Positions 11,213-33,677 of a stretch of DNA of 64,000 bases are shown piece after piece. Position 1 is the first letter of the stretch. Each line of letters begins with the position of its first letter. A model generated the notes under the pieces. That model was not told where the DNA came from, ran no database searches, and saw only the letters and a program-made list of their open reading frames with translations. The translations under genes were made by a program, and so were the position numbers. The stretch is from Patescibacteria group bacterium UBA3531 (GTDB lineage Bacteria; Patescibacteriota; Minisyncoccia; Phycocordibacterales; UBA3531): contig DFOW01000001.1 in assembly GCA_002376885.1 (NCBI GenBank), forward strand, positions 15,381 to 79,380. Direction: 5' to 3'.

Positions 11213-11226
11213 ACCTCAACTTCAAA
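11200..11226. repeat. 27-bp direct repeat copy 1 (CTTTTTTGTATACACCTCAACTTCAAA) flanking the Doc cassette
   Basis: 25/27 identical to the copy at 11875-11901. On the minus strand it reads FEVEVYTKK*, a duplicated gene 3' end. Confidence 0.6.
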
Positions 11227-11719
11227 CACTTTTTGTAGTGAACTTTAGAAACTTTTCCACCTTCTTTTTAAGAGCTTCAAAATCAGGCTCGTGCGCAACA
11301 CTATCAGCAACAATAATAGATAAATTATACAAACCAAACTCTTCAGGATTAAAATCTCCAAAATCTTGATATTTATTAAAGCTCGGGAATAGTTCTTTTA
11401 CCAAGGAAGAATACTCTTCCTTGGTATGTTCAGAAAACTGAGCGTTATTAATAAGAAGAAATCCCAAGGTCGTAACAAGGGCAAGACGTTTATTTCCATT
11501 TTCAAAAAAATGTCCCTTGTTGATTTGAACCAATAAATACGCCGCCTTCTCTAGCAATGTTGGGTAATAAATGTCGTTTGTAACTTGAATAAGTACCCCC
11601 TTCAGTTTTTTGCATCCCTCCTCTTGAGAATCATAAGGAGGCATCGGCTCCTGTTTAGAGTAATGCCGATAAATGAGGTCAAAGAGGGTTGGGAGATCCT
11701 CTTCTTTAAAATAATTCAT
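11222..11719 (-). CDS. doc: Fic/Doc-family toxin (death-on-curing-like)
   Basis: Fic/Doc motif HFFENGNKRLAL (HxFx[D/N]GNKR). 165 aa. Its ATG lies 2 nt after the stop of the small upstream ORF. Confidence 0.7.
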   Translation of the reverse strand: MNYFKEEDLPTLFDLIYRHYSKQEPMPPYDSQEEGCKKLKGVLIQVTNDIYYPTLLEKAAYLLVQINKGHFFENGNKRLALVTTLGFLLINNAQFSEHTKEEYSSLVKELFPSFNKYQDFGDFNPEEFGLYNLSIIVADSVAHEPDFEALKKKVEKFLKFTTKSV

Positions 11720-12353: not shown

Positions 12354-13064
12354 TCATTTCAAAATATCGTGTAACTTATCACTAGAATACTCTTCTGGAA
12401 TATAGCTGTCAATCTTTGAAATATTCTCATGGTACTTAAAATCTGTTCCATCAATGTTCTTCACGATTAGATCCACTTGTAAATTGCCCACAAATTGGGC
12501 CTTTATCTTGTTTACGTTTTCCCTGGCCAAAAAATACTGTTCAATAAAGGCCTCCCTGGGAATAATCCTACCATCTTTAGAGGCCCTTATCTTCACAAAC
12601 TCCCAGGCTTGTATCGGATCCTGATACACATAAACTATAAAAACATCTCTGGACTTTTTAAGTGATCTACTAATGTTATCAACTGCTCTATTAAAATTGG
12701 TTAGAGTACCATCAAAAACAAAACTCTGCTTTTGTTTCAATGCAAGATCATGTATTTTATCTACAACAATAGAGGTAGCCCCCTGAAATAAAGAAGAATT
12801 CTTTCCGTTATATGCCTCAAACTCAACTCTTAATTCATCAGGATCTATATGCAAAACCAAGTCATTATTTGAGATTTTTTGAATCAAGGCCTTAGCAGAC
12901 TCTGTCTTTCCCGCCCCAGGAGAACCAGCCATAAACACTGAAACTGGGTGGTCCTCTGGTTTATATATGGAGGAATCCACAAGCCTTTTTGCTATTTCTT
13001 TTTTATTTTTTTGTGCAAATACAATAGCTTCAGCTTCTATATCGGCATCTGAAATATTAGACAT
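12354..13064 (-). CDS. zeta-toxin-like P-loop kinase (AAA_33/Zeta_toxin family)
   Basis: Walker A MAGSPGAGKTES. Then HIDPDELR and FVFDGTL motifs with zeta/PezT-like order and spacing. Preferred start is ATG 13064 (MSNISDADIE, GGGAGA upstream). The longer 13169 start overlaps the antitoxin gene. Confidence 0.6.
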   Translation of the reverse strand: MSNISDADIEAEAIVFAQKNKKEIAKRLVDSSIYKPEDHPVSVFMAGSPGAGKTESAKALIQKISNNDLVLHIDPDELRVEFEAYNGKNSSLFQGATSIVVDKIHDLALKQKQSFVFDGTLTNFNRAVDNISRSLKKSRDVFIVYVYQDPIQAWEFVKIRASKDGRIIPREAFIEQYFLARENVNKIKAQFVGNLQVDLIVKNIDGTDFKYHENISKIDSYIPEEYSSDKLHDILK

Positions 13065-13074
13065 TATTTTCCAT

Positions 13075-13260
13075 TTATTTCTCCCAATCTTCAATGATAA
13101 GTTTTTTGCCGGATTTTTTAACGGTGACTTTTTGGCGTTCTCGCCAGCCGAGTTCACGAACAACCTCAATAGGAATAGTCACCGAGATACTGTGTTTCCC
13201 TACTTTGGTTAATTTTCGTATTGTTTTGTCCCTCTTTTTTCTTCGTACCATATAAACCAT
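13075..13260 (-). CDS. AbrB/MazE/SpoVT-type (swapped-hairpin) antitoxin
   Basis: 61 aa. KVGKHSISVTIPIEVVRELGWRERQKVTV matches the AbrB/MazE fold signature. Ends 10 nt before the kinase start. Confidence 0.65.
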   Translation of the reverse strand: MVYMVRRKKRDKTIRKLTKVGKHSISVTIPIEVVRELGWRERQKVTVKKSGKKLIIEDWEK

Positions 13261-13294
13261 TTACGTAAGGATTTACGTAAATCCTTACGTAAAT
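13259..13294. promoter_or_regulatory. perfect 36-bp palindrome ATTTACGTAAGGATTTACGTAAATCCTTACGTAAAT (putative autoregulatory operator of the AbrB-type antitoxin operon)
   Basis: Three TACGTAA half-sites in perfect dyad symmetry. Lies between a TATATT -10-like element and the antitoxin start codon on the minus strand. Confidence 0.6.
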
Positions 13295-13358
13295 ATACTA
13301 CTCCTTTGCCCTTATTTTTCAAACAAGAACGCCCCGCAAAGGAAACGTCCCTGCGGAG

Positions 13359-13622
13359 CTATGTCCTACTGCTGGCTTCACTCCACAAAGCTAGCAGACG
13401 TTGCTGTTTCTTCCCTTCAAACTTCTCTGCGAGTGCTTCTACTGCATCAGCAAGATCCGTCATCTCGCATTCGGTCTGCATGGCGTATCCAAGACATGTA
13501 AGAGCCCATGTCTCTGGATCGTCATCAGGGTCGAGTTCTAGGGAGTTGATGATCGCTTCCCCCAAGGCACGAAAGAACTCCTCTTCGTCAACTTCCACGA
13601 TGTCGACTTCTCCAGACTCCAT
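13359..13622 (-). CDS. acidic hypothetical protein (GC-rich island 2)
   Basis: 87 aa, strongly acidic (VEVDEEEFF...DPDDDPE). RBS GAAGGGAGG. GC-rich codon usage unlike the backbone. Confidence 0.35.
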   Translation of the reverse strand: MESGEVDIVEVDEEEFFRALGEAIINSLELDPDDDPETWALTCLGYAMQTECEMTDLADAVEALAEKFEGKKQQRLLALWSEASSRT

Positions 13623-13718
13623 CTTTTCAGCCTCCCTTCTAGTTTTACCCTACCTTATTTATTTTTATTTTTCAAATTAAACAAGAGCAGCCCGGAACTT
13701 GCGTTCCGGGCTGTACCC

Positions 13719-14111
13719 CTAGTAGATGAAATCTTCAGGCTTCTCCTTCTGTGGCTCGAGGCCGTACCAGCGAAGAACTTCCTTGTTACGGGCAGTGTGC
13801 GTGAGTCCGAAGAGTTCTTCGGCGATCCGCAGCTGATCCCCAGCATCCGTATGGTACGGATGCTGATTGCAGTCGATGCGAATCAAAAGGTCAGGAACAA
13901 TGCCGAACATGGGGCCATGCTTGTAGATCCTGAGCTCAAATCCTAAAACGTTCGATACCAGTTGACACGGAAGCTCCAGGCGTCTGGTGATCTCGTCCAC
14001 TCGCGCCCACTCTTCCGTCCGAAGCTGGTGGCAGCCCCATCCACCCTCGTTATGGATCTTCCTTTCCATCTCCTTGAGCCACGCGATGTCGGCTTCTCTG
14101 CAATCTGTCAT
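13719..14111 (-). CDS. hypothetical protein (GC-rich island 2)
   Basis: 130-aa ORF. A terminator-like hairpin (CAGCCCGGAAC..GTTCCGGGCTG) lies downstream. No motif recognised. Confidence 0.35.
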   Translation of the reverse strand: MTDCREADIAWLKEMERKIHNEGGWGCHQLRTEEWARVDEITRRLELPCQLVSNVLGFELRIYKHGPMFGIVPDLLIRIDCNQHPYHTDAGDQLRIAEELFGLTHTARNKEVLRWYGLEPQKEKPEDFIY

Positions 14112-14205
14112 GGCTAAAACACCTCCATTCCCAACATTACCCTTTTCATTATATTTTTCAAACCATATGAAAGGTCCGGCGCTCAGCGCCGGACCTGGGC
14201 TCTTT

Positions 14206-14787
14206 TCAGCCCTTGAGTTCTTCCAAATACGTCTCCCAAAGAGGCAACCAGTCTTCCCTACTCACACTAAGAAGGATCTCATCGTAGTAGGTTCCGTTCC
14301 GGAAATGCCAACCATCTCTTCGTCCCACTTCCTTGTACCCACACCCCATAAGGTACCGATGACTTCGCTCGTTGAAGCCAATCACTGCGGCCCCCACCTG
14401 TCGCAGATTGAGTGTAAGGAATGCAAAGGCAAGCTGGAGCATCTTGGCATCCGTACCGTACCCCTTCCCCCAATATTCCTTCTCACCGATGATGGTTCCC
14501 GAAGCGGCTGTCCGATTGATCGGATGGATTCGGTGAAGACCGATATTCCCGATCAGCTTCTTTCCTTTGAGTGTCTCGATTGCAAAGACAATCTGCTCGT
14601 CAGAGCCCTTGCCGAGCCTGTCGAACCAGGCCTCTTCCTGCGATCGCATCACTGGATTGTTTGATCCAACGAACTGTGTCACCTCTGGATCGTTCAACCA
14701 CTTAAGAAAGTGACTCAGATCGTGCCTCTTGTCGAGCGGACGGAGCCGAACAAGTCTGCCTTCGCGAATCACGTGATTGTCTTCCAT
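14206..14787 (-). CDS. GNAT-family N-acetyltransferase (RimJ/RimL-like)
   Basis: Preferred start MEDNHV at 14787 with SD GAGGAG. GNAT motif A-like region (QVGAAVIGFNERSHRYLMGCGYKEVG) and general RimL-like architecture. The N-terminal 130 codons of the track ORF look non-coding (R/S/P-rich). Confidence 0.65.
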   Translation of the reverse strand: MEDNHVIREGRLVRLRPLDKRHDLSHFLKWLNDPEVTQFVGSNNPVMRSQEEAWFDRLGKGSDEQIVFAIETLKGKKLIGNIGLHRIHPINRTAASGTIIGEKEYWGKGYGTDAKMLQLAFAFLTLNLRQVGAAVIGFNERSHRYLMGCGYKEVGRRDGWHFRNGTYYDEILLSVSREDWLPLWETYLEELKG

Positions 14788-14844
14788 GTTCTCCTCACAT
14801 TGTTTTGGAATTATTAAAAGAACTTCCATTTCGAGAAAGGTGGG

Positions 14845-14876
14845 TAAAAAAACACCCTGACGCTTTCTCGCCAGGG
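14845..14876 (-). terminator. rho-independent terminator (minus strand) upstream of the GNAT gene
   Basis: Minus strand: GCCCUGGCG-AGAAAG-CGUCAGGG followed by UGUUUUUUUACCC. Confidence 0.55.
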
Positions 14877-15118
14877 CATTCCTCAGACTAGTGTTGTTAG
14901 CTTTTATATAACCATAAGAGTAAGAGAATCTTGACCAGGCGAAACAGCCTCCTGTGCTTCGGTGCACACGAGATATGAAATCCCCGCATTCATTTTTCGC
15001 AAAAATTCTCTTTGCATAATTAAAAAATACCCTGTTTAGGGTATTTGTCAAGAGGACAGCCCCGGTCGCAACATTAACGACCGGGGCTGTGTCAACTTGA
15101 GAAGGCGCGGTAGAGTGC

Positions 15119-15376
15119 CTATTGGGTCTCGGCCGGATTCTCCGTATAGACGAAGATCTCCTGGATCGAGGCTCCACTCCTGATAGTCACCCTGAGCCCC
15201 GCCTGGATAGGCGTGAACTTGATCCGTCGAGGGGCACCGCGTGCCTTCTTGATGATCCCCAAGACGACTTTCGAAGTATAGGGGCACTTCTATGCTGTGT
15301 CTACGACACCTACTGCGGCATTGATGGTGGTTGTGTGGCTTCCGGCCACTTTGCCACCGGCACGATGTTTCGGCAT
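15119..15376 (-). pseudogene. bL27-like small ORF interrupted by an in-frame TAG (possible pseudogene or read-through gene)
   Basis: SD AAGAGGA 6 nt before the ATG. MPKHRAGGKVAGSHTTT...TA-TAG-KCPYTSKVVLGIIKKARGAPRRIKFTP.... Weak resemblance to bL27 (AHKKAGG N-terminus; V.LAG.IIVRQRGTKF core). Total read-through length 85 aa equals bL27. Two hairpin terminators downstream at 15030-15091. Confidence 0.25.
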
Positions 15377-15462
15377 AATTCCTCTTTTACCGGTGGTTTT
15401 ACCTGCCTATTTAATATAATAATTTAAAATAAGTGTCAAGAATATAGATTTCTGTATCCCTA

Positions 15463-15491
15463 TTGACAAAATAGTACTTCCCTACTATTAT
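15463..15491 (+). promoter_or_regulatory. sigma-70-like promoter TTGACA-N17-TATTAT
   Basis: Consensus -35 and near-consensus -10 with a 17-nt spacer in an AT-rich intergenic region, about 215 nt upstream of the ABC exporter start. Confidence 0.55.
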
Positions 15492-15649
15492 CCCAATATT
15501 ATGAATATATACCGAACAAAAACACTGTTCATGCGAACCACGCAATTTATGTGTGGGCGTCTTGGCGTAGTCATTTCTACCGTACACCGTTTTTGTGCCA
15601 GGCAATATGTTCTGAGGGCTTAAATTCTCATCTCTAATCTGAGCGTTTG

Positions 15650-15686
15650 AAACATCTTGTCTGGCTGACAAGATGTTTTTGTTCTT
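15650..15686 (+). terminator. intrinsic terminator/attenuator inside the 5' leader of the ABC exporter gene
   Basis: Perfect 11-bp stem AAACATCTTGTC-TGGCTG-ACAAGATGTTT followed by TTGTTCTTTC, ending about 20 nt before the SD GAGAGGG and the ATG at 15707. Confidence 0.6.
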
Positions 15687-15706
15687 TCACAACGAGAGGG
15701 TTAACC

Positions 15707-17548
15707 ATGGAAAAGCGCTTGCGTAAGTACTGCGACGATCTTGCTGAAACGCGGGAAGTGATTCAGTGGATCAAGAGTGAATTTGTCACTCAAGAGGCAT
15801 GGGCATGGGCAAAGAAGATGTTCTTTGTTTTTGCTATCATGATCGGCCTTGACGCACTCCAGCCGTTTGCGGTTCGGTATGTGTTTGATGGGCTCGTTTC
15901 GGGCAACTCTTCATGGGTTATCTTTGGCTTCGTTGGTTTTCTTGTGTGCTTTACGGCACAGAAGGTTACTGACTATCTGAAGAACACCTATCGGGAGTGG
16001 TTCATTGGTCTTAACATTGCAACCATCGATCGTCGTATTACCGAGCTTTTCTTCGAGAAGTCGCTTGGTCAATACGTTACCCATAGTTCTCTTTTGAACG
16101 TGGCGACGATGGACCGCGGGAGGAGCAGTATCAACAACATTCAGGGTACGCTCGTTTTTTACGGGACCTCTTCCTTTTTGTACATGACACTGTCTTGGGT
16201 TGCTGTTGCTCTCTTGAGTCCGCTCTCGGGCGCGCTCTTTTTGCTAGTTGCAACCATCTACCTTCTTTCGGGTTTTTATCTGAACAGTCGTGTAGAAACG
16301 GAGTGTCACGAAATTGAGGAAGATTTTAGGCGTCTTCGTCGTCACCGCTTTGAACGGTGGGAAAAGCTTGAGCGTGTTGCGCTCACTGGAAAGAAGCATC
16401 ACGAGCTTTCCTTCATGACGGAGCGCTTTGACGACATCCTTTCCAAAGACCGAGCATTTTGGTTGGGATTTATTCGTCACTGTGGTTTACGTGAAGGAGT
16501 GAACATTCTGGTGCTTGCGCTCATCTTTGGGATCGGCGCATGGAATGTGTGGACCGGAGTGTGGAGTGTGGGACTTTTGTACCCACTCTACAGTTTGTCG
16601 TCTCGCATCAGTCATAACATGTGGCAGATTGGCGACATTTATCTGGATCTTTCACGTGAGGTTCCTCGTGTTCGCTCAATGATGCGTGCACTCTCGCTCA
16701 CACCAGAAGTGACTGACGCCCCGAACGCGCAAGAGCTTGACCTTACACGTGCTCCGGAAATTCGGTTTGAGGGGGTCTCGCACCGATACCCAGCAGAAGA
16801 CACACGCACTGCAAACGATGGTGTACACACTCTGAAGAATGTCTCGTTTGAGATTGGGCAGGGTGAGAAGCTTGCTGTCATTGGGCCAAGCGGCGCTGGT
16901 AAAACCAGCATTGCAAAACTCCTTTTGCGGTACATGGATCCTGAAGAGGGTGCCATTACTGTAAACGGTATCAGCCTGAAAGACATTGCGCTTTCTTCGT
17001 GGATGCGTCATGTGGGAGTAATTGCCCAAGACCCGCAAGTGTTCGACAACACGTTGCGTTACAACATTACGTATGGTCTTTCCGAAGATCATCGGGAGGA
17101 AATCAAAGACGAAGACGTATGGCATTTGATGAAGCTTCTTCATATCGATTTTGGAAAGCGACTCACTGCAGGACTTGAAACCCGAGTCGGCAGAAGCGGT
17201 ATGAAGCTTTCGGGTGGAGAAGCACAACGCCTTATGATTGGAGCGGCGGCAATCAAGCGCCCCCACTTCATGATCATTGATGAGGCAACCAGCAGTCTCG
17301 ATTCTACAACCGAGAAGGAGGTCCAGAAGGGATTGGCAGATGTGCTTTCGGGTGATGTTGGTGCTCTTGTGATTGCGCATCGGCTTTCAACCGTACGAGA
17401 CCTGTGTGATAAGTTCATGGTACTGAAGCGCAGTACCGACGCGAACACCACTCCGCAGGTTGAAGCAATTGCCGGGAGCTTTGAGGAGCTCTACGAACTC
17501 TCTCCTACGTTCAGGCGTCTATGTGATGACCAAGGGGTCATCATTTAG
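15707..17548 (+). CDS. ABC transporter, fused permease/ATP-binding exporter (type I half-transporter)
   Basis: N-terminal 6-TM domain. Walker A GPSGAGKTS, ABC signature LSGGEAQRL, Walker B MIIDEATSSLD and H-loop. Preferred start MEKRLRKY with SD. The track start at 15647 lies inside the terminator hairpin. Confidence 0.85.
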   Translation: MEKRLRKYCDDLAETREVIQWIKSEFVTQEAWAWAKKMFFVFAIMIGLDALQPFAVRYVFDGLVSGNSSWVIFGFVGFLVCFTAQKVTDYLKNTYREWFIGLNIATIDRRITELFFEKSLGQYVTHSSLLNVATMDRGRSSINNIQGTLVFYGTSSFLYMTLSWVAVALLSPLSGALFLLVATIYLLSGFYLNSRVETECHEIEEDFRRLRRHRFERWEKLERVALTGKKHHELSFMTERFDDILSKDRAFWLGFIRHCGLREGVNILVLALIFGIGAWNVWTGVWSVGLLYPLYSLSSRISHNMWQIGDIYLDLSREVPRVRSMMRALSLTPEVTDAPNAQELDLTRAPEIRFEGVSHRYPAEDTRTANDGVHTLKNVSFEIGQGEKLAVIGPSGAGKTSIAKLLLRYMDPEEGAITVNGISLKDIALSSWMRHVGVIAQDPQVFDNTLRYNITYGLSEDHREEIKDEDVWHLMKLLHIDFGKRLTAGLETRVGRSGMKLSGGEAQRLMIGAAAIKRPHFMIIDEATSSLDSTTEKEVQKGLADVLSGDVGALVIAHRLSTVRDLCDKFMVLKRSTDANTTPQVEAIAGSFEELYELSPTFRRLCDDQGVII

Positions 17549-17562
17549 CTGCCTTAACAGCA

Positions 17563-21421: not shown

Positions 21422-22120
21422 CTATTCTAGATTGTTTGGCAAAAAGCGTGGCACCCAAAATACGAGCGCCGAGAGAATGAGCGAAATAAGAGTAATGATG
21501 ATTGCAAACGAGATTTGAGAAGGGTCTGCTGACGGAAAGTATAAAACCACTGCAAGTGCCCAAATAATCCCGTTTAAGCTCAAAATATAGGCTTTTACAC
21601 GCGCTACAAGGCTCTCTGTGAAGCGTGCACTATCGAAATAGGCAAAGCTCCATAAAAGTGCCGTAAAGCCAGTTATAAGGCTAAATGCCCAGATGGCGAG
21701 AGGGTTTACATTCCATAAAATCCATCCACTTTCATCGAGTATAGGAAGCCTAAAGTCGGTAATTAAAAGCGCCATAATAAACACCCCCGACACCACCACG
21801 AGCAATCTAAAGAAGGGTCTGATTCTTTTAATAAGAGGGTTTAGGTAAAACACTTTTGTTTCAAAAAGTACGAGAACCATGACCAAAACCAAATAAACTG
21901 AAAGAATAAATCCCCATGCAACGTACTCTAAGGTTCCTACAATTAAAAACGGTAAGCTTTGTGCAAACGAATACGCAGCAAACAATGTAAAAAAGAGTCC
22001 AAGCTTAGTAAGCTCTCCTTTATGTACATCTTTTTTCCAATACGAAACAAAAAGTCCAAGCGCTGCAATGCTTGAGACAAGCGCCATAATAAATTGGAGT
22101 GCAACCGTATAATTCAGCAT
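21422..22120 (-). CDS. stand-alone 7TM sensor-domain paralog
   Basis: 232 aa. Paralogous to 20704..21420 (LFQLIMAIV../LQFIMALV.. and conserved W..P motifs). Confidence 0.5.
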   Translation of the reverse strand: MLNYTVALQFIMALVSSIAALGLFVSYWKKDVHKGELTKLGLFFTLFAAYSFAQSLPFLIVGTLEYVAWGFILSVYLVLVMVLVLFETKVFYLNPLIKRIRPFFRLLVVVSGVFIMALLITDFRLPILDESGWILWNVNPLAIWAFSLITGFTALLWSFAYFDSARFTESLVARVKAYILSLNGIIWALAVVLYFPSADPSQISFAIIITLISLILSALVFWVPRFLPNNLE

Positions 22121-22141
22121 ACTCCTATGATACTAACGTTT

Positions 22142-23824
22142 CTAAATATCCTCAAGAAAATCTTTGATCTCTTTTCGTTTTTGCACATATTCCGGGTTTG
22201 GATACTCAACAATAAATCGAGTTCCTTTTCCGCGTCCTGTAGACTCTGCCCAAATTTTACCCCCATGCGCCTCAACAATTTGCTTTGCAACATAGAGTCC
22301 CAATCCCCGCCCTTCGGTGTGCAATCTAAATGATCCTTGTGTTCGACTAAACTTCTCAAAAAGTCTACTCATCATCTCTGGCTGGATTCCCATTCCGGTA
22401 TCGGTAATAGATGTTCTGATTACTTTGTCTTGCGTGTCATTTTCAATATCAATTTTAATGGTTCCTCCTGCTGGTGTGTACTTAATAGCGTTATCAAGAA
22501 TGTTTGAATACACTTGTTCCAACTTTTCTCTGTCCCCTTCTATAATGTAATTCCCGCCAAGCGAGGCATTTAAAATTACATCAAACTTTTGTTCTTTAAG
22601 AGTGTCTCTAAAGTATTCAATCGAGGCACTTACCACATTGCGCACATTAGTTTTATCAAAAACGTATTTCATCTCCCCCTTCTCGATCCGAGAGATGTTA
22701 GTAAACTCCTGAATCACAAGCACGAGTCGCTGGCTCCCTTGAAAGATTTGATCGATTGCATTTGTTTGTTTTTTGTTATCAATTTTTCCAAACGCACCCT
22801 CAAGGAGCATTGAGGCGTATCCTTTAATCACCGTAAGGGGGGTTCTTAATTGGTGGGATGTAATAGATACAAAATCAGACTTCTCGATATCAATTTGCTC
22901 AAGGCGCTTGTTGGCAGTTTGAAGCTTTATTGCTAACTGTTCCATCTCCTCCCGCAAGTCAACCTCTTTTAAGAGTCCGCGAACCAAGTAAAAACTAAAT
23001 CCAGATACCACAAGGAAGATGGCTGTTTTAAGTGCTGTTTCAACGGGTCCTTCTGCAACAAAAATCTGAAGCAAAAGAATCACGACCATGAGTGCAATAA
23101 AGAATTGGAGCGCAACAATTTTAAAGTCCCACAACTTGTGCCGAATAATGGCGTAAGCAATAAACGATACAAAAATAAGAGTACCCACTGGTCCCATCCA
23201 GTCATTCCCTTGTACCCCAAAAGCTGGAAGAACAAGGTTAGTTAAAAGCCCTAAAACGATCGAAATTCCGGTTCCGGTAACAATAAATTTAAGTTGGTTT
23301 TTAACGTTTCCTGATGCAGTGAAGTATTTTTTAGTAAGCCATACAAGACCACCAAAAAAGTATGCAAACACAAACACTGTGTAATACCAAAATGCCCATC
23401 CAAATTCTTGTGCTTTTGCATACGGCGCAATCTCGGTTACATCAGTAATTACAGAACGCGGAATCCCTGGACTCAAAATAAGAAAAATAAGAACAATCAT
23501 TGACCCAATAACAATCCATGCTTGTCGTTTATCAAGCTTTTTATCTTCTGTTCCAAAATAATATCCAAAAAAATAAAACGCTACTGAGAAGATTGCGGCA
23601 ATCATATAGTTCATGTCACTCCAAAAAAGAGTGAGCGCATTTACCCCTGGCTGAATATAAAAGTTAATACCAATAGCCCAAATTCCTACCCCCGTAATGG
23701 TGAGCACGAAAAAGATACTACTTTTAAGTTTGCTACGAAGATAGATAAGAGACGCCAAAATAAAGTTCGTAACCGAGACGATTGCTAAAATAATGGTTCT
23801 AAAATCTACTCCTAAAAATTCCAT
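22142..23824 (-). CDS. sensor histidine kinase with N-terminal 7TM domain (HisKA + HATPase_c)
   Basis: H-box ITSHQLRTPLTVIKGY, N-box NILDNAIKYT, G1 DTGMGI, G2 GRGLGLYVAKQIVEAHGG. About 250 aa of polytopic N-terminus. Confidence 0.85.
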   Translation of the reverse strand: MEFLGVDFRTIILAIVSVTNFILASLIYLRSKLKSSIFFVLTITGVGIWAIGINFYIQPGVNALTLFWSDMNYMIAAIFSVAFYFFGYYFGTEDKKLDKRQAWIVIGSMIVLIFLILSPGIPRSVITDVTEIAPYAKAQEFGWAFWYYTVFVFAYFFGGLVWLTKKYFTASGNVKNQLKFIVTGTGISIVLGLLTNLVLPAFGVQGNDWMGPVGTLIFVSFIAYAIIRHKLWDFKIVALQFFIALMVVILLLQIFVAEGPVETALKTAIFLVVSGFSFYLVRGLLKEVDLREEMEQLAIKLQTANKRLEQIDIEKSDFVSITSHQLRTPLTVIKGYASMLLEGAFGKIDNKKQTNAIDQIFQGSQRLVLVIQEFTNISRIEKGEMKYVFDKTNVRNVVSASIEYFRDTLKEQKFDVILNASLGGNYIIEGDREKLEQVYSNILDNAIKYTPAGGTIKIDIENDTQDKVIRTSITDTGMGIQPEMMSRLFEKFSRTQGSFRLHTEGRGLGLYVAKQIVEAHGGKIWAESTGRGKGTRFIVEYPNPEYVQKRKEIKDFLEDI

Positions 23825-23825
23825 A

Positions 23826-25511
23826 TTAGCGTGTACTTATTTCGGTTACTGTTTCTGGAATCTCGACCCTGTGGCGTGCCACAAACTCGGCGAGTTCTAA
23901 ATGGAAGGTGCTCCCCGCACCCTCTCCTTTTGACTCCACCCAAATCTTTCCCCCATGCGCACGAACAATTTGCCGTGCAACATACAATCCCAATCCACGT
24001 CCTTCTTTACGTAATTTTTCTGCAGATTCGGTACGAGTATATTTTTGGAAGAGTTTTTCTTGTGCCTCTTTGCTAATACCAATCCCGTGATCTTTTACGC
24101 TCAAGTACACTTTGTGATCTCGTTTTTTAAGTGCTACTTCAATATCTGTGCCTTTAGGACTGTACTTAATGGCATTATCTATTAAGTTATTGATTACTTG
24201 GCGTAACTTAAGCGCATCTCCAATAACTGGATACTGCTGGCCTTCTCCGATATGAATTTTTAAGCGCTCGCCAACCTCAGGGGACGCTGCCTTAAGCTCG
24301 TTTACCACACTCCATAAAAGTGTCGCTACCTCAATACGGGTAAACTTATACGACATCTTCCCTTGTTCGATTCGTGAAATATTAAGAAAGTCTTCAATCA
24401 TACCAACGAGTCTTTCGCTCGCATCAAAAATATTACGGATAACTTTTTTAGCCTCTTTATTTTCGATCGGTCCAAATGTTCCCTCTAAAAGCATGGCGGC
24501 GTACCCCTTAATTACCGTAAGTGGTGTACGCAATTGGTGCGATGCGATTGACACAAACGTTGATTTTTCGACATCAATTTCTTTAAGTCGAATATTGGCA
24601 CGTTCAAGCTCTTCAGTAAGCTCTCTCACATCCTCCCGAGCCTCAACTTCTTTAAAAATTCCACGAATAAGTAAGTAACTAAAGATAGCGGTAAAAATAA
24701 AGGCGATAGATTTAAAAATAACCTTACTTAATACATCTGCAGCAACAAAAATATCTACCAAAAGAGTAAGTAACACTGCCACTACCACAATCTCGGTAAT
24801 AACGAGTTTAAAGTCCCATAACTCGCGCCTGGTAATGGCATATCCCACAATCATTAAAAGCACGATCGCAACAAGCGGCCCAAGCCACACCACGTTAGTA
24901 ACTCCAAAGAGTGGTAGAAAAAGATTTGCTGTTACCGCAACCGTGATAGAGAAGAAGGTTCCAAAAATAATGTAACGGAGTCTAATGCGCAAATCATTAC
25001 TTACTCGAGAATATTTATAAATAAGGATTGGAAACATTCCAAAAAGATACACGGCCAAAAGCGGTAAGTAGACTTTAAAAAAGAGTGGGCCATACACCAC
25101 CACATTTTGCCCGCCTTGAAACACAACATCACGAGCTGTTGCCCCTGGCGACAAAGTAAACAATAAAAGAGCAATCCATGGGCCAAATATAAAGATCTTT
25201 TGTAAAGGACTTATAACTCTATTCTCTCGTCCAATATAAAAGGCAAACAAAAACAAAAAGAGCGCCATTACAATGGGCGGGATAAATAAATAATACCCCC
25301 ACACAGGGGCAAGCCCCGTTACACTAGAGAGCTGCAAAAAGGCTCGCCCTAAAACCCAAAAACCGGCTGCAATACCTACAATCCCAAAATATCGAGTTGA
25401 GCGCTTTGTTTTATCGTGCCGATAAATACTAATCCCAATTGCAAACGATGCAAGTGCAACTAACAATAAAAGAAGTGTAATGAGTGTGTTGGCATTAAGT
25501 TCGGGAATCAT
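23826..25511 (-). CDS. sensor histidine kinase with N-terminal 7TM domain (paralog 2)
   Basis: IASHQLRTPLTVIKGY, NLIDNAIKYS, DHGIGI, GRGLGLYVARQIVRAHGG. Separated from HK1 by 1 nt. Confidence 0.85.
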   Translation of the reverse strand: MIPELNANTLITLLLLLVALASFAIGISIYRHDKTKRSTRYFGIVGIAAGFWVLGRAFLQLSSVTGLAPVWGYYLFIPPIVMALFLFLFAFYIGRENRVISPLQKIFIFGPWIALLLFTLSPGATARDVVFQGGQNVVVYGPLFFKVYLPLLAVYLFGMFPILIYKYSRVSNDLRIRLRYIIFGTFFSITVAVTANLFLPLFGVTNVVWLGPLVAIVLLMIVGYAITRRELWDFKLVITEIVVVAVLLTLLVDIFVAADVLSKVIFKSIAFIFTAIFSYLLIRGIFKEVEAREDVRELTEELERANIRLKEIDVEKSTFVSIASHQLRTPLTVIKGYAAMLLEGTFGPIENKEAKKVIRNIFDASERLVGMIEDFLNISRIEQGKMSYKFTRIEVATLLWSVVNELKAASPEVGERLKIHIGEGQQYPVIGDALKLRQVINNLIDNAIKYSPKGTDIEVALKKRDHKVYLSVKDHGIGISKEAQEKLFQKYTRTESAEKLRKEGRGLGLYVARQIVRAHGGKIWVESKGEGAGSTFHLELAEFVARHRVEIPETVTEISTR

Positions 25512-32894: not shown

Positions 32895-33677
32895 ATGAAG
32901 AATTTACGAGAAAACCTTATACAATTTGGACTCTCAGACAAGGAGGCGGACGTCTACCTTGCCCTGCTTTCTGCTGGTCCATCACTTGGTAGTGTAATCG
33001 CCCAAAAGGCAAAGATTAATAGGAGCACCACCTATCTTCATCTAGACACCCTTATCAAAAAAGGTCTTGTAAGCGTGAGCGAAGAGAACAAAATTAAAAC
33101 TTTTACCCCTGCCCCACCGGACAGAATCATCCACCTTCTTGAGGAATCTCTTTCTAAATATACCGAGCTTTTGCACGTTGCAGATGCAATGCTCCCTGAT
33201 CTTAAAAAAATGTACGCCACTGAAAAGAAGAAGGAGGATGCAAAACCAAAAGTACAACTTTTTGAAGGGACCCAAGGCCTAAAAAGTGCTTACGAGGACA
33301 TGCTAGAGACCAATGATGATGTGCGTACTTATGCCTCAATGGAAGACATACACACCCTTTTGCCAGAATACTTCCCTAAATACTACAAACGTAGAGCTGA
33401 AAAAGGTACTCAAATACGAGTAATCTTCCCTGACATTAAAAAAGTAACAGAGCGCGTAAAAGCTATCCCCTCAAAAATTAGAGACGCACGGGTGCTTTCA
33501 AAAGAAGCTCACGACTTTTCTCCTGAGATTAATATCTATGGAAGCAAAATTGCATTTATTTCTCCTAAAGAACAGTTTGGACTCATTATTGATAGTTCTG
33601 AACTCTCAAACGCACTCAAAACAATCTTTGAGATCTCTTGGCTTGCTGCCAAAAAACTAAGTCTCCAAACCGCTTAA
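32895..33677 (+). CDS. TrmB-family transcriptional regulator
   Basis: N-terminal wHTH LGLSDKEADVYLALLSAGPSLGSVIAQKAKINRSTTYLHLDTLIKKGLV. 260 aa. Upstream TTGTTA-N17-TATAAT promoter with a TATACA..TGTATA inverted repeat. Confidence 0.7.
   Translation: MKNLRENLIQFGLSDKEADVYLALLSAGPSLGSVIAQKAKINRSTTYLHLDTLIKKGLVSVSEENKIKTFTPAPPDRIIHLLEESLSKYTELLHVADAMLPDLKKMYATEKKKEDAKPKVQLFEGTQGLKSAYEDMLETNDDVRTYASMEDIHTLLPEYFPKYYKRRAEKGTQIRVIFPDIKKVTERVKAIPSKIRDARVLSKEAHDFSPEINIYGSKIAFISPKEQFGLIIDSSELSNALKTIFEISWLAAKKLSLQTA

Follow-up and report, generated by a model that had tools for sequence, protein, structure and literature searches.

A probable ribosome-mediated transcription attenuator in front of an ABC exporter gene of a Patescibacteria genome

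How is a gene expressed when an intrinsic terminator stands directly before its start codon? We met this question in a 64,000-nucleotide (nt) stretch of the genome of Patescibacteria group bacterium UBA3531 (assembly GCA_002376885.1, contig DFOW01000001.1), here called the window, where a gene for an ATP-binding cassette (ABC) exporter is preceded by a promoter, a small open reading frame (ORF) and a terminator. The original prediction, made from the DNA letters, was that read-through of this terminator is conditional, with the leader-peptide attenuator of BmrB-BmrCD as a precedent and a riboswitch as an alternative. Our analysis supports conditional read-through by a leader-peptide attenuator, through a covarying antiterminator, an ORF that is kept open and a stop codon lying within the antiterminator 5' strand. 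We conclude that the element is probably a ribosome-mediated transcription attenuator controlling the exporter.

All parts of the element lie on the forward strand and follow one another closely. The predicted TTGACA-N17-TATTAT promoter is present at 15463-15491, with its -35 hexamer TTGACA at 15463-15468 and its -10 hexamer TATTAT at 15486-15491 after a 17-nt spacer; it agrees with the sigma-70 promoter at 11 of 12 positions and was the top-ranked of six promoter-like sites in a 2-kilobase (kb) scan (1.9 expected). The 40-codon ORF that had been proposed near the transcript start is also there, at 15501-15623, with its ATG at 15501 (9 nt past the -10 box), its stop codon TAA at 15621-15623 and the product MNIYRTKTLFMRTTQFMCGRLGVVISTVHRFCARQYVLRA. 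The terminator hairpin occupies 15649-15679 and is made up of a 5' arm, C (15649-15661), a loop, TGGCT (15662-15666), and a 3' arm, D (15667-15679). A perfect 11-bp stem with a U tract had been claimed; the terminator and its U tract hold, while the stem has 13 pairs, of which 12 are Watson-Crick (4 of them G-C) and one is G-U, with a predicted free energy of -17.0 kcal/mol. The U tract, TTTTTGTTCTTTC, spans 15676-15688 and includes a conserved GTTCTTT motif at 15681-15687. The exporter's Shine-Dalgarno (SD) sequence GAGAGGG follows at 15694-15700, and here too the expected order of SD and ATG was right and only the position of the ATG, 15707 rather than 15708, had to be moved, since the frame that opens at 15708 runs into stop codons.

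Could such an arrangement be fortuitous? Promoter-like and terminator-like sites are expected 1.9 and 2.4 times per 2 kb, which leaves room for a chance layout, or for an unconditional terminator of a small upstream transcript with the exporter transcribed from elsewhere. However, the exporter ATG follows the terminator stem after just 27 nt, a distance too short for a second promoter, and the exporter would be transcribed by read-through alone. Moreover, the whole module is kept in front of exporters that are only 36-53% identical and lie in unrelated genomic contexts, which makes a chance layout or an unrelated terminator extremely unlikely. That the element is more than chance is thus indicated mainly by its conservation in relatives, not by scans of a single sequence.

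The exporter gene itself (15707-17548) encodes a protein of 613 amino acids (aa) in which a transmembrane domain is fused to an ATPase (Pfam ABC_tran), an ABCB-type half-transporter whose top matches among solved structures are ABCB1 and Atm1-type exporters. Against NCBIfam, the protein scores below the cut-off of every model. Proteins that are 36-53% identical to it make up a separate family found mostly in metagenome-assembled genomes of Patescibacteria, with named members from Parcubacteria, Patescibacteria, Peribacteria, Uhrbacteria, Buchananbacteria and Taylorbacteria genomes; outside this family the next matches are generic ABC exporters, with an identity of about 30%.

We collected the DNA around these relatives by exact-protein look-up (four loci) and by a metagenome scan (80 loci), and kept five further look-up loci as an independent set. 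The scan used the family-specific transmembrane part of the exporter as its only query; when contigs were scanned with an alignment of full-length exporters, generic ABC motifs brought in large numbers of unrelated exporters, and only L005-L009 were family members. The loci examined closely were L005, L085-L090, about 16 of a first leader class (class A, which includes the window), nine of a class C and the independent loci L171-L175. Every one of them, including all five of the independent set, shows promoter, short ORF, terminator with U tract, SD and exporter in this order, and the exporters are preceded by a long noncoding gap that houses the leader module. For the window genome itself, which is a marine metagenome-assembled genome, four assemblies were compared, among them GCA_002708165.1 (PAMJ01000009.1) as well as Tara and ENA assemblies, and the leader does not differ between them.

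The promoter is placed similarly across these loci. TTGAC-type -35 boxes stand in equivalent positions in L086, L088, L090, L151, L175 and L104, and the gap from the -10 box to the leader start codon is 8-10 nt in the window, L086, L088, L090, L151 and L175. With the start codon only 8-10 nt past the -10 box, translation of the leader ORF is suggested to begin on a leaderless or nearly leaderless transcript; in the window, transcription would start about 2-3 nt before the leader ATG or at it. Other loci have short untranslated leaders with no obvious SD.

We then asked whether the terminator and a competing structure are maintained by selection for pairing, using an alignment of 12 class A leaders (A3). 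The terminator is 92% paired on A3, compared with 40-49% in slid controls, and 8 of its 13 pairs are altered on both sides; none of 500 shuffles reached the observed values, and an unguided RNAalifold consensus recovered the same helix. As the original prediction anticipated, an alternative structure that competes with the terminator was also found, and it too is conserved with covariation. Its 5' strand begins with a segment, B (15599-15612), that comprises leader codons -7 to -3, nearly repeats the sequence of the terminator 3' arm D and pairs with 15651-15663, at the terminator 5' arm C. On A3, B:C is 77% paired, as against 35-49% in slid controls, and seven of its pairs are altered on both sides. 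On four of five measures only 0-3 of 500 shuffles matched the observed value, whereas the fifth, which counts further pair types, was not significant (158 of 500). The three segments vary together: they read ATGTT/AACAT/ATGTT for B, C and D in the window and L095, and ATATT/AATAT/ATATT elsewhere, and a GGCAC/GTGCC pairing variant occurs in L102 and L095.

Next to B lies a second hairpin, H2 (15613-15649), whose 5' arm (15613-15626) takes in the two final codons and the stop and whose 3' arm (15636-15649) contains a conserved TTGA(A/G); it is foldable and conserved in sequence. Stacked on each other, B:C and H2 of the window make up a 24-bp antiterminator at 15599-15663, with a predicted free energy of -18.5 kcal/mol versus -17.0 for the terminator, and the leader stop codon falls in the middle of the 5' strand of this helix. 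The 221-nt leader as a whole is predicted to fold more stably than all 200 of its dinucleotide shuffles (z = -3.2). Another complementarity, between 15514-15526 and the U-tract region, appeared in one minimum free energy (MFE) fold only and was not seen by eye in relatives, and we regard it as incidental.

The position of the stop codon provides a further test. An ungapped search for B had weak per-locus significance and was unsuited to bulged terminators, and RNAduplex was adopted in its place to find where in the leader ORF and spacer the terminator 5' arm pairs best, a region of about 130-190 nt per locus. The test covered 24 loci (13 of class A, nine of class C and two newly fetched); six others had no terminator by the strict caller. 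In 22 of the 24, the 3' end of the best partner lies no more than 9 nt from the leader stop. With searched regions of about 130-190 nt, this agreement is far beyond chance, and it includes leader classes that are unrelated in sequence: in class C the pairing is CGGAAGCAGG-TAG against GGAAGGCAGGG. With a stop codon in the antiterminator 5' strand, the element has the geometry that ribosome-mediated attenuation needs. The spacer between stop codon and terminator is 12-29 nt across loci (25 nt in the window), so a ribosome at the stop would be unable to melt the terminator and yet would cover B and the 5' arm of H2.

Folded under constraint, the window leader behaves as this geometry suggests. 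When 15604-15636 is masked, as by a ribosome at the stop, the leader folds the terminator, and with a mask over the ORF start or in mid-ORF it folds the antiterminator. We therefore propose the following model, in which the variable sensed would be the progress of leader translation. In the antiterminator, B and H2 would supply the 5' strand and C, the 5' arm of the terminator, the 3' strand. In the OFF state, a ribosome moving at normal speed would occupy the last codons and the stop during transcription of C and D and mask B and H2, C would then pair with D, and RNA polymerase would terminate at about 15688. In the ON state, a leading ribosome that is slowed or stalled farther upstream would leave B and H2 free to capture C, blocking the terminator and allowing read-through. 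H2 and the U residues that follow it may also act as a pause site that synchronizes ribosome and polymerase. This polarity of regulation, with slower leader translation giving more read-through, is what the folds lead us to expect, and by analogy with bmrB-bmrCD the exporter may be induced by ribosome-targeting antibiotics or by general translation stress.

A terminator with a mutually exclusive antiterminator is also the expression platform that one would expect of a metabolite riboswitch or of a protein-dependent antiterminator, in which the fold would be chosen by something other than the ribosome, and two short conserved motifs, one ahead of C (TTGAAT) and one past the terminator (GTTCTTT), could be read in that light. 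Yet Rfam 15 gave no match at 15463-15710 (E <= 10), in the window (gathering scores) or in six relatives (E <= 1). No aptamer-like core is apparent, and everything upstream of the last ~7 codons, and hence of B, varies among relatives in sequence and length. Such a sensor would also leave unexplained why the frame is open and why the stop codon has a fixed position. We consider this explanation very unlikely, and the riboswitch that had been offered as an alternative found no support.

The GTTCTTT motif drew our attention for its own sake. GTTC[TC]TT occurs 3' of the terminator in 11 of 18 class A loci (the window, L088, L090, L094, L095, L100, L106, L116, L151, L155 and L157), compared with 0.02 expected, and in some of them it is set apart from the U tract. 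A role as an anti-SD was set aside, since its pairing with the SD is weak (-4.3 kcal/mol in the window) and present in some loci only.

If translation of the leader sets the fold, its reading frame should be kept open. Indeed, in all 16 class A loci the conserved stop is preceded, in its own frame, by 42 or more codons without interruption, and in 15 of the 16 this frame is the longest of the three, with a median of 54.5 codons versus 2 and 17.5 for the others. Across relatives the leader ORFs range from 19 to 55 codons. The peptides are basic, and class A peptides are unrelated to one another except for their last ~7 residues. There are no single-amino-acid runs or tandem regulatory codons in the 20 leaders surveyed, among which the strongest residue enrichments were Cys (2.0-fold, 16 residues), Arg (1.8-fold) and Phe (1.8-fold); an amino-acid-sensing attenuator of the trp/his/leu subclass was rejected on this ground. 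In class C, whose peptides can be aligned over their full length, the three codon positions account for 20, 21 and 27 variable alignment columns, respectively, and the share of synonymous differences is 23% in frame versus 17-18% out of frame. Peptide-level selection in class C thus appears weak, and with both tests weak we do not claim a functional peptide. The pattern fits a leader ORF for which the act of translation matters more than the product.

These same data bear on two explanations in which the peptide itself would matter. In the first, the leader C terminus would be an arrest peptide that stalls the ribosome at or near the stop in response to a small molecule, such as a drug or the exporter's substrate, as in TnaC or Erm-type leaders, and so sets the fold. 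About 8-10 of the 16 class A leaders, whose peptides are otherwise unrelated, share a C-terminal motif, R-Q-x-I-M/L-R-x*, other leader classes have conserved C termini of their own (...KRFAPCRTI* and ...GGPGSR*), and the terminator stem sequence is unusually conserved in class A, as if beyond what pairing demands. However, the conserved codons are exactly those that pair with C, and an RNA constraint suffices to account for them; L095 (..TML*) and L129 (..GDVNI*) have dropped the motif and retain B:C; and the coding-type selection in class C is only weak. The logic would also be odd, since a stall at the stop would mask B and cause termination, so that the ligand would repress the exporter. 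We therefore regard an arrest-peptide sensor as unlikely, and it is just as doubtful that the leader C termini are ligand-responsive arrest peptides that sense an antibiotic of a host or neighbor, or the exporter's substrate, and switch the exporter on. If that were true, the leaders would form a lineage-wide family of nascent-chain sensors in Patescibacteria, for which hardly any regulators are known.

In the second, the short ORF would be a gene for a small protein, a substrate or partner of the exporter, and a leaky terminator would set the ratio of peptide to exporter without any sensing, as in bacteriocin operons. The constant linkage of a short ORF to this exporter family and the full-length alignment of class C peptides would suit such a gene, but class A peptides have nothing in common outside their last ~7 residues, which together with the weak coding-type selection speaks against a conserved product. 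Moreover, Pfam finds only ABC_tran in the exporter and no C39 peptidase domain, bacteriocin ABC models of NCBIfam fall well short of their cut-offs, and a double-glycine motif is absent from the peptides. A small-protein gene would also leave unexplained why the end of the ORF always mimics the terminator 3' arm. We judge this explanation quite improbable.

Although the ribosome-mediated attenuator is the explanation that we favor, several observations weigh against it. The H2 hairpin is 76% paired on A3 without significant covariation, and appears to be kept by sequence conservation, not by compensatory change. B:C duplexes of single loci beat their shuffles modestly (z from -0.1 to -5.9, with one locus at +1.1), so the case for B:C draws on its consistent position and on covariation among 12 sequences. 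The MFE fold of the full window leader alternates between the two states with the 3' end chosen. A further segment, A (15503-15513), may act as an anti-antiterminator by pairing with B before C is made, a tentative feature of the MFE folds of the full leader and the pre-terminator transcript; in the window the MFE shifts from A:B to B:C once C has been transcribed. A:B-like pairing (15503-15513 with 15601-15612 in the window) is found in only about 6 of 16 relatives, and because it is present in some loci only, the outcome in the absence of any translation is ambiguous. The leaders contain no obvious stall site or run of regulatory codons, and the semiconserved last ~7 residues (R-Q-x-I-M/L-R-x*) could have a peptide-specific role that lies outside the attenuation model. 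Finally, translation of the leader ORF, conditional read-through and the kinetic coupling of ribosome and polymerase are steps that we infer from sequence.

The closest published parallel is the bmrB-bmrCD system of Bacillus subtilis, which controls a multidrug ABC exporter and in which efficient translation of the leader prevents the antiterminator from forming and leads to termination, while lincomycin, erythromycin and chloramphenicol slow translation and cause read-through (PMC4191407). Compared by layout and by the published model, the mechanism proposed there fits the window element, so the precedent named at the outset was well chosen. Both systems have a leader ORF of about 40-53 codons ahead of one or more ABC exporter genes and a terminator with a competing antiterminator, and neither leader has single-amino-acid regulatory runs. 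They differ in that the bmrB terminator lies inside the bmrB coding region, whereas the window terminator begins 25 nt past the stop; that bmrB has a 5' untranslated region, whereas the window ORF starts 9 nt past the -10 box and is probably leaderless; and that BmrC and BmrD form a heterodimer encoded by two genes, whereas the leader of the window precedes a single half-transporter gene from a different, Patescibacteria-centered family.

Attenuators of the trpL type control biosynthetic operons (trp, his and leu in Escherichia coli) by means of tandem regulatory codons. The window element resembles them in having mutually exclusive helices and in that a terminating ribosome would mask the antiterminator 5' strand (region 2 in trp), and H2 with its U residues, the counterpart of the 1:2 hairpin in trp, could synchronize polymerase and ribosome. 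Unlike them, it regulates an exporter, lacks tandem regulatory codons and has a 1:2-like anti-antiterminator only inconsistently.

Two other systems share part of the design. In mycobacteria, leaderless polycysteine short ORFs with runs of Cys codons act as cysteine-sensing attenuators (bioRxiv 10.1101/834739); like the window ORF they are leaderless first cistrons that regulate downstream genes, but the window element has no codon runs, has a canonical intrinsic terminator and belongs to another phylum. In Streptococcus pneumoniae, a terminator-type attenuator likewise lies upstream of the ABC efflux genes patAB, and its disruption gives constitutive overexpression (PMC4319486); the abstract of that study describes no conserved leader ORF or role of the ribosome, and the two elements are unrelated in sequence. 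Our literature search found no description of the window element or of attenuators in Patescibacteria, an absence that is no proof. The leader family is previously uncatalogued, and the mechanism is a known one.

To see how far this leader extends, we built a covariance model (R1) of the class A leader 3' module, which corresponds to 15591-15708 in the window (81.7 bits, a seed sequence), and searched both strands of 92 sources totaling 405 kb. In the 64-kb window 15591-15708 is the only significant match. All plus-strand matches lie directly upstream of family exporters, except at the methyltransferase-exporter pair of L103/L104, and the others are weaker reverse-strand echoes of the same sites together with a single match in the window, at 33517-33660 on the minus strand (20 bits, E = 0.46), that is probably noise. 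Matches outside the seed include L104 (E = 2.5e-6), L142 (E = 2.4e-5) and, from the independent set, L174 (E = 9e-11). In L103/L104 a class A leader (188-317) is followed by a generic S-adenosylmethionine-dependent methyltransferase gene (319-1098, 259 aa) and then by the exporter, so a class A leader can control a two-gene operon. A scan of viral contigs for the terminator core gave no matches.

The leaders fall into classes by their 3' ends. Class A peptides end in the R-Q-x-I-M/L-R-x* motif and their terminators have the stem core ATATCTTGCC/GGCAAGATAT. Class C, from soil, has peptides of ~47 aa ending in GGPGSR* and terminators of the form AACCCTGCTTCC/GGAAGGCAGGGTT. The singletons L171, L172, L173 and L175 have still other sequences, with their parts in an unchanged order. 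Class B, also from soil (L120, L124, L136, L152 and L162), has peptides ending in ...IKRFAPCRTI* and lacks a canonical terminator; its stop-codon region, GTACAATTTAG, can pair with an upstream segment, CAAAATTGTC, or with the exporter start region, TTTTGTGATTGTC, and this class may represent a version of the switch that acts on translation.

The leader of the window precedes one exporter gene only, and the next gene, of the NUDIX type, lies on the other strand. Positions 13250-17550 have a G+C content of ~50% in a genome of ~39% and hold a GNAT gene (Acetyltransf_3; 14206-14829, minus strand), a 130-aa ORF of no assigned role (13719-14111, minus strand), the leader and the exporter. This stretch looks like an acquired island, and it is flanked by a Zeta-toxin gene (12354-13169, minus strand) and a Fic/Doc gene (11222-11719, minus strand). 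Related exporter cassettes adjoin toxin-antitoxin genes or a transfer RNA gene (L086, L088 and L090), and two exporter relatives, P0066 and P0083 (the latter of 933 aa), carry a precomputed Zeta_toxin Pfam match on the same protein; the Zeta-toxin gene of the window is separate and lies 2.5 kb from the exporter.

Between the GNAT start and the leader promoter, 630 nt (14830-15462) have no Pfam or Rfam match and no similarity to the other fetched loci. On their minus strand are a promoter-like sequence (15303-15275), a 79-codon ORF (15287-15048) and a terminator-like hairpin (15046-15025), which could together form a small gene or a small RNA. Farther along the window, two tandem histidine kinases of ~560 aa with a seven-transmembrane sensor (HisKA_7TM) are encoded at 21422-25511 on the minus strand, preceded by two paralogous membrane proteins of ~235 aa without a Pfam domain.

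Patescibacteria, or the Candidate Phyla Radiation, are mostly uncultured; to our knowledge, very little is known of their gene regulation, and few transcription factors have been recognized in them. In this setting the element represents a defined and conserved cis-regulatory switch for a lineage-specific family of ABC exporters, and it would imply that transcription-translation coupling and intrinsic termination are functional in these bacteria. It also points to translation stress as the inducer of the exporter, with ribosome-targeting antibiotics of hosts or neighbors as a possible cause. The principle is textbook, and the advance lies in a new family and a new phylogenetic setting, for which the analysis provides the covariance model R1 and a set of mutational predictions. 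Because leader classes that are unrelated in sequence have retained the mimicry of the terminator 3' arm by the end of the ORF, they constitute a natural experiment on the evolution of attenuators.

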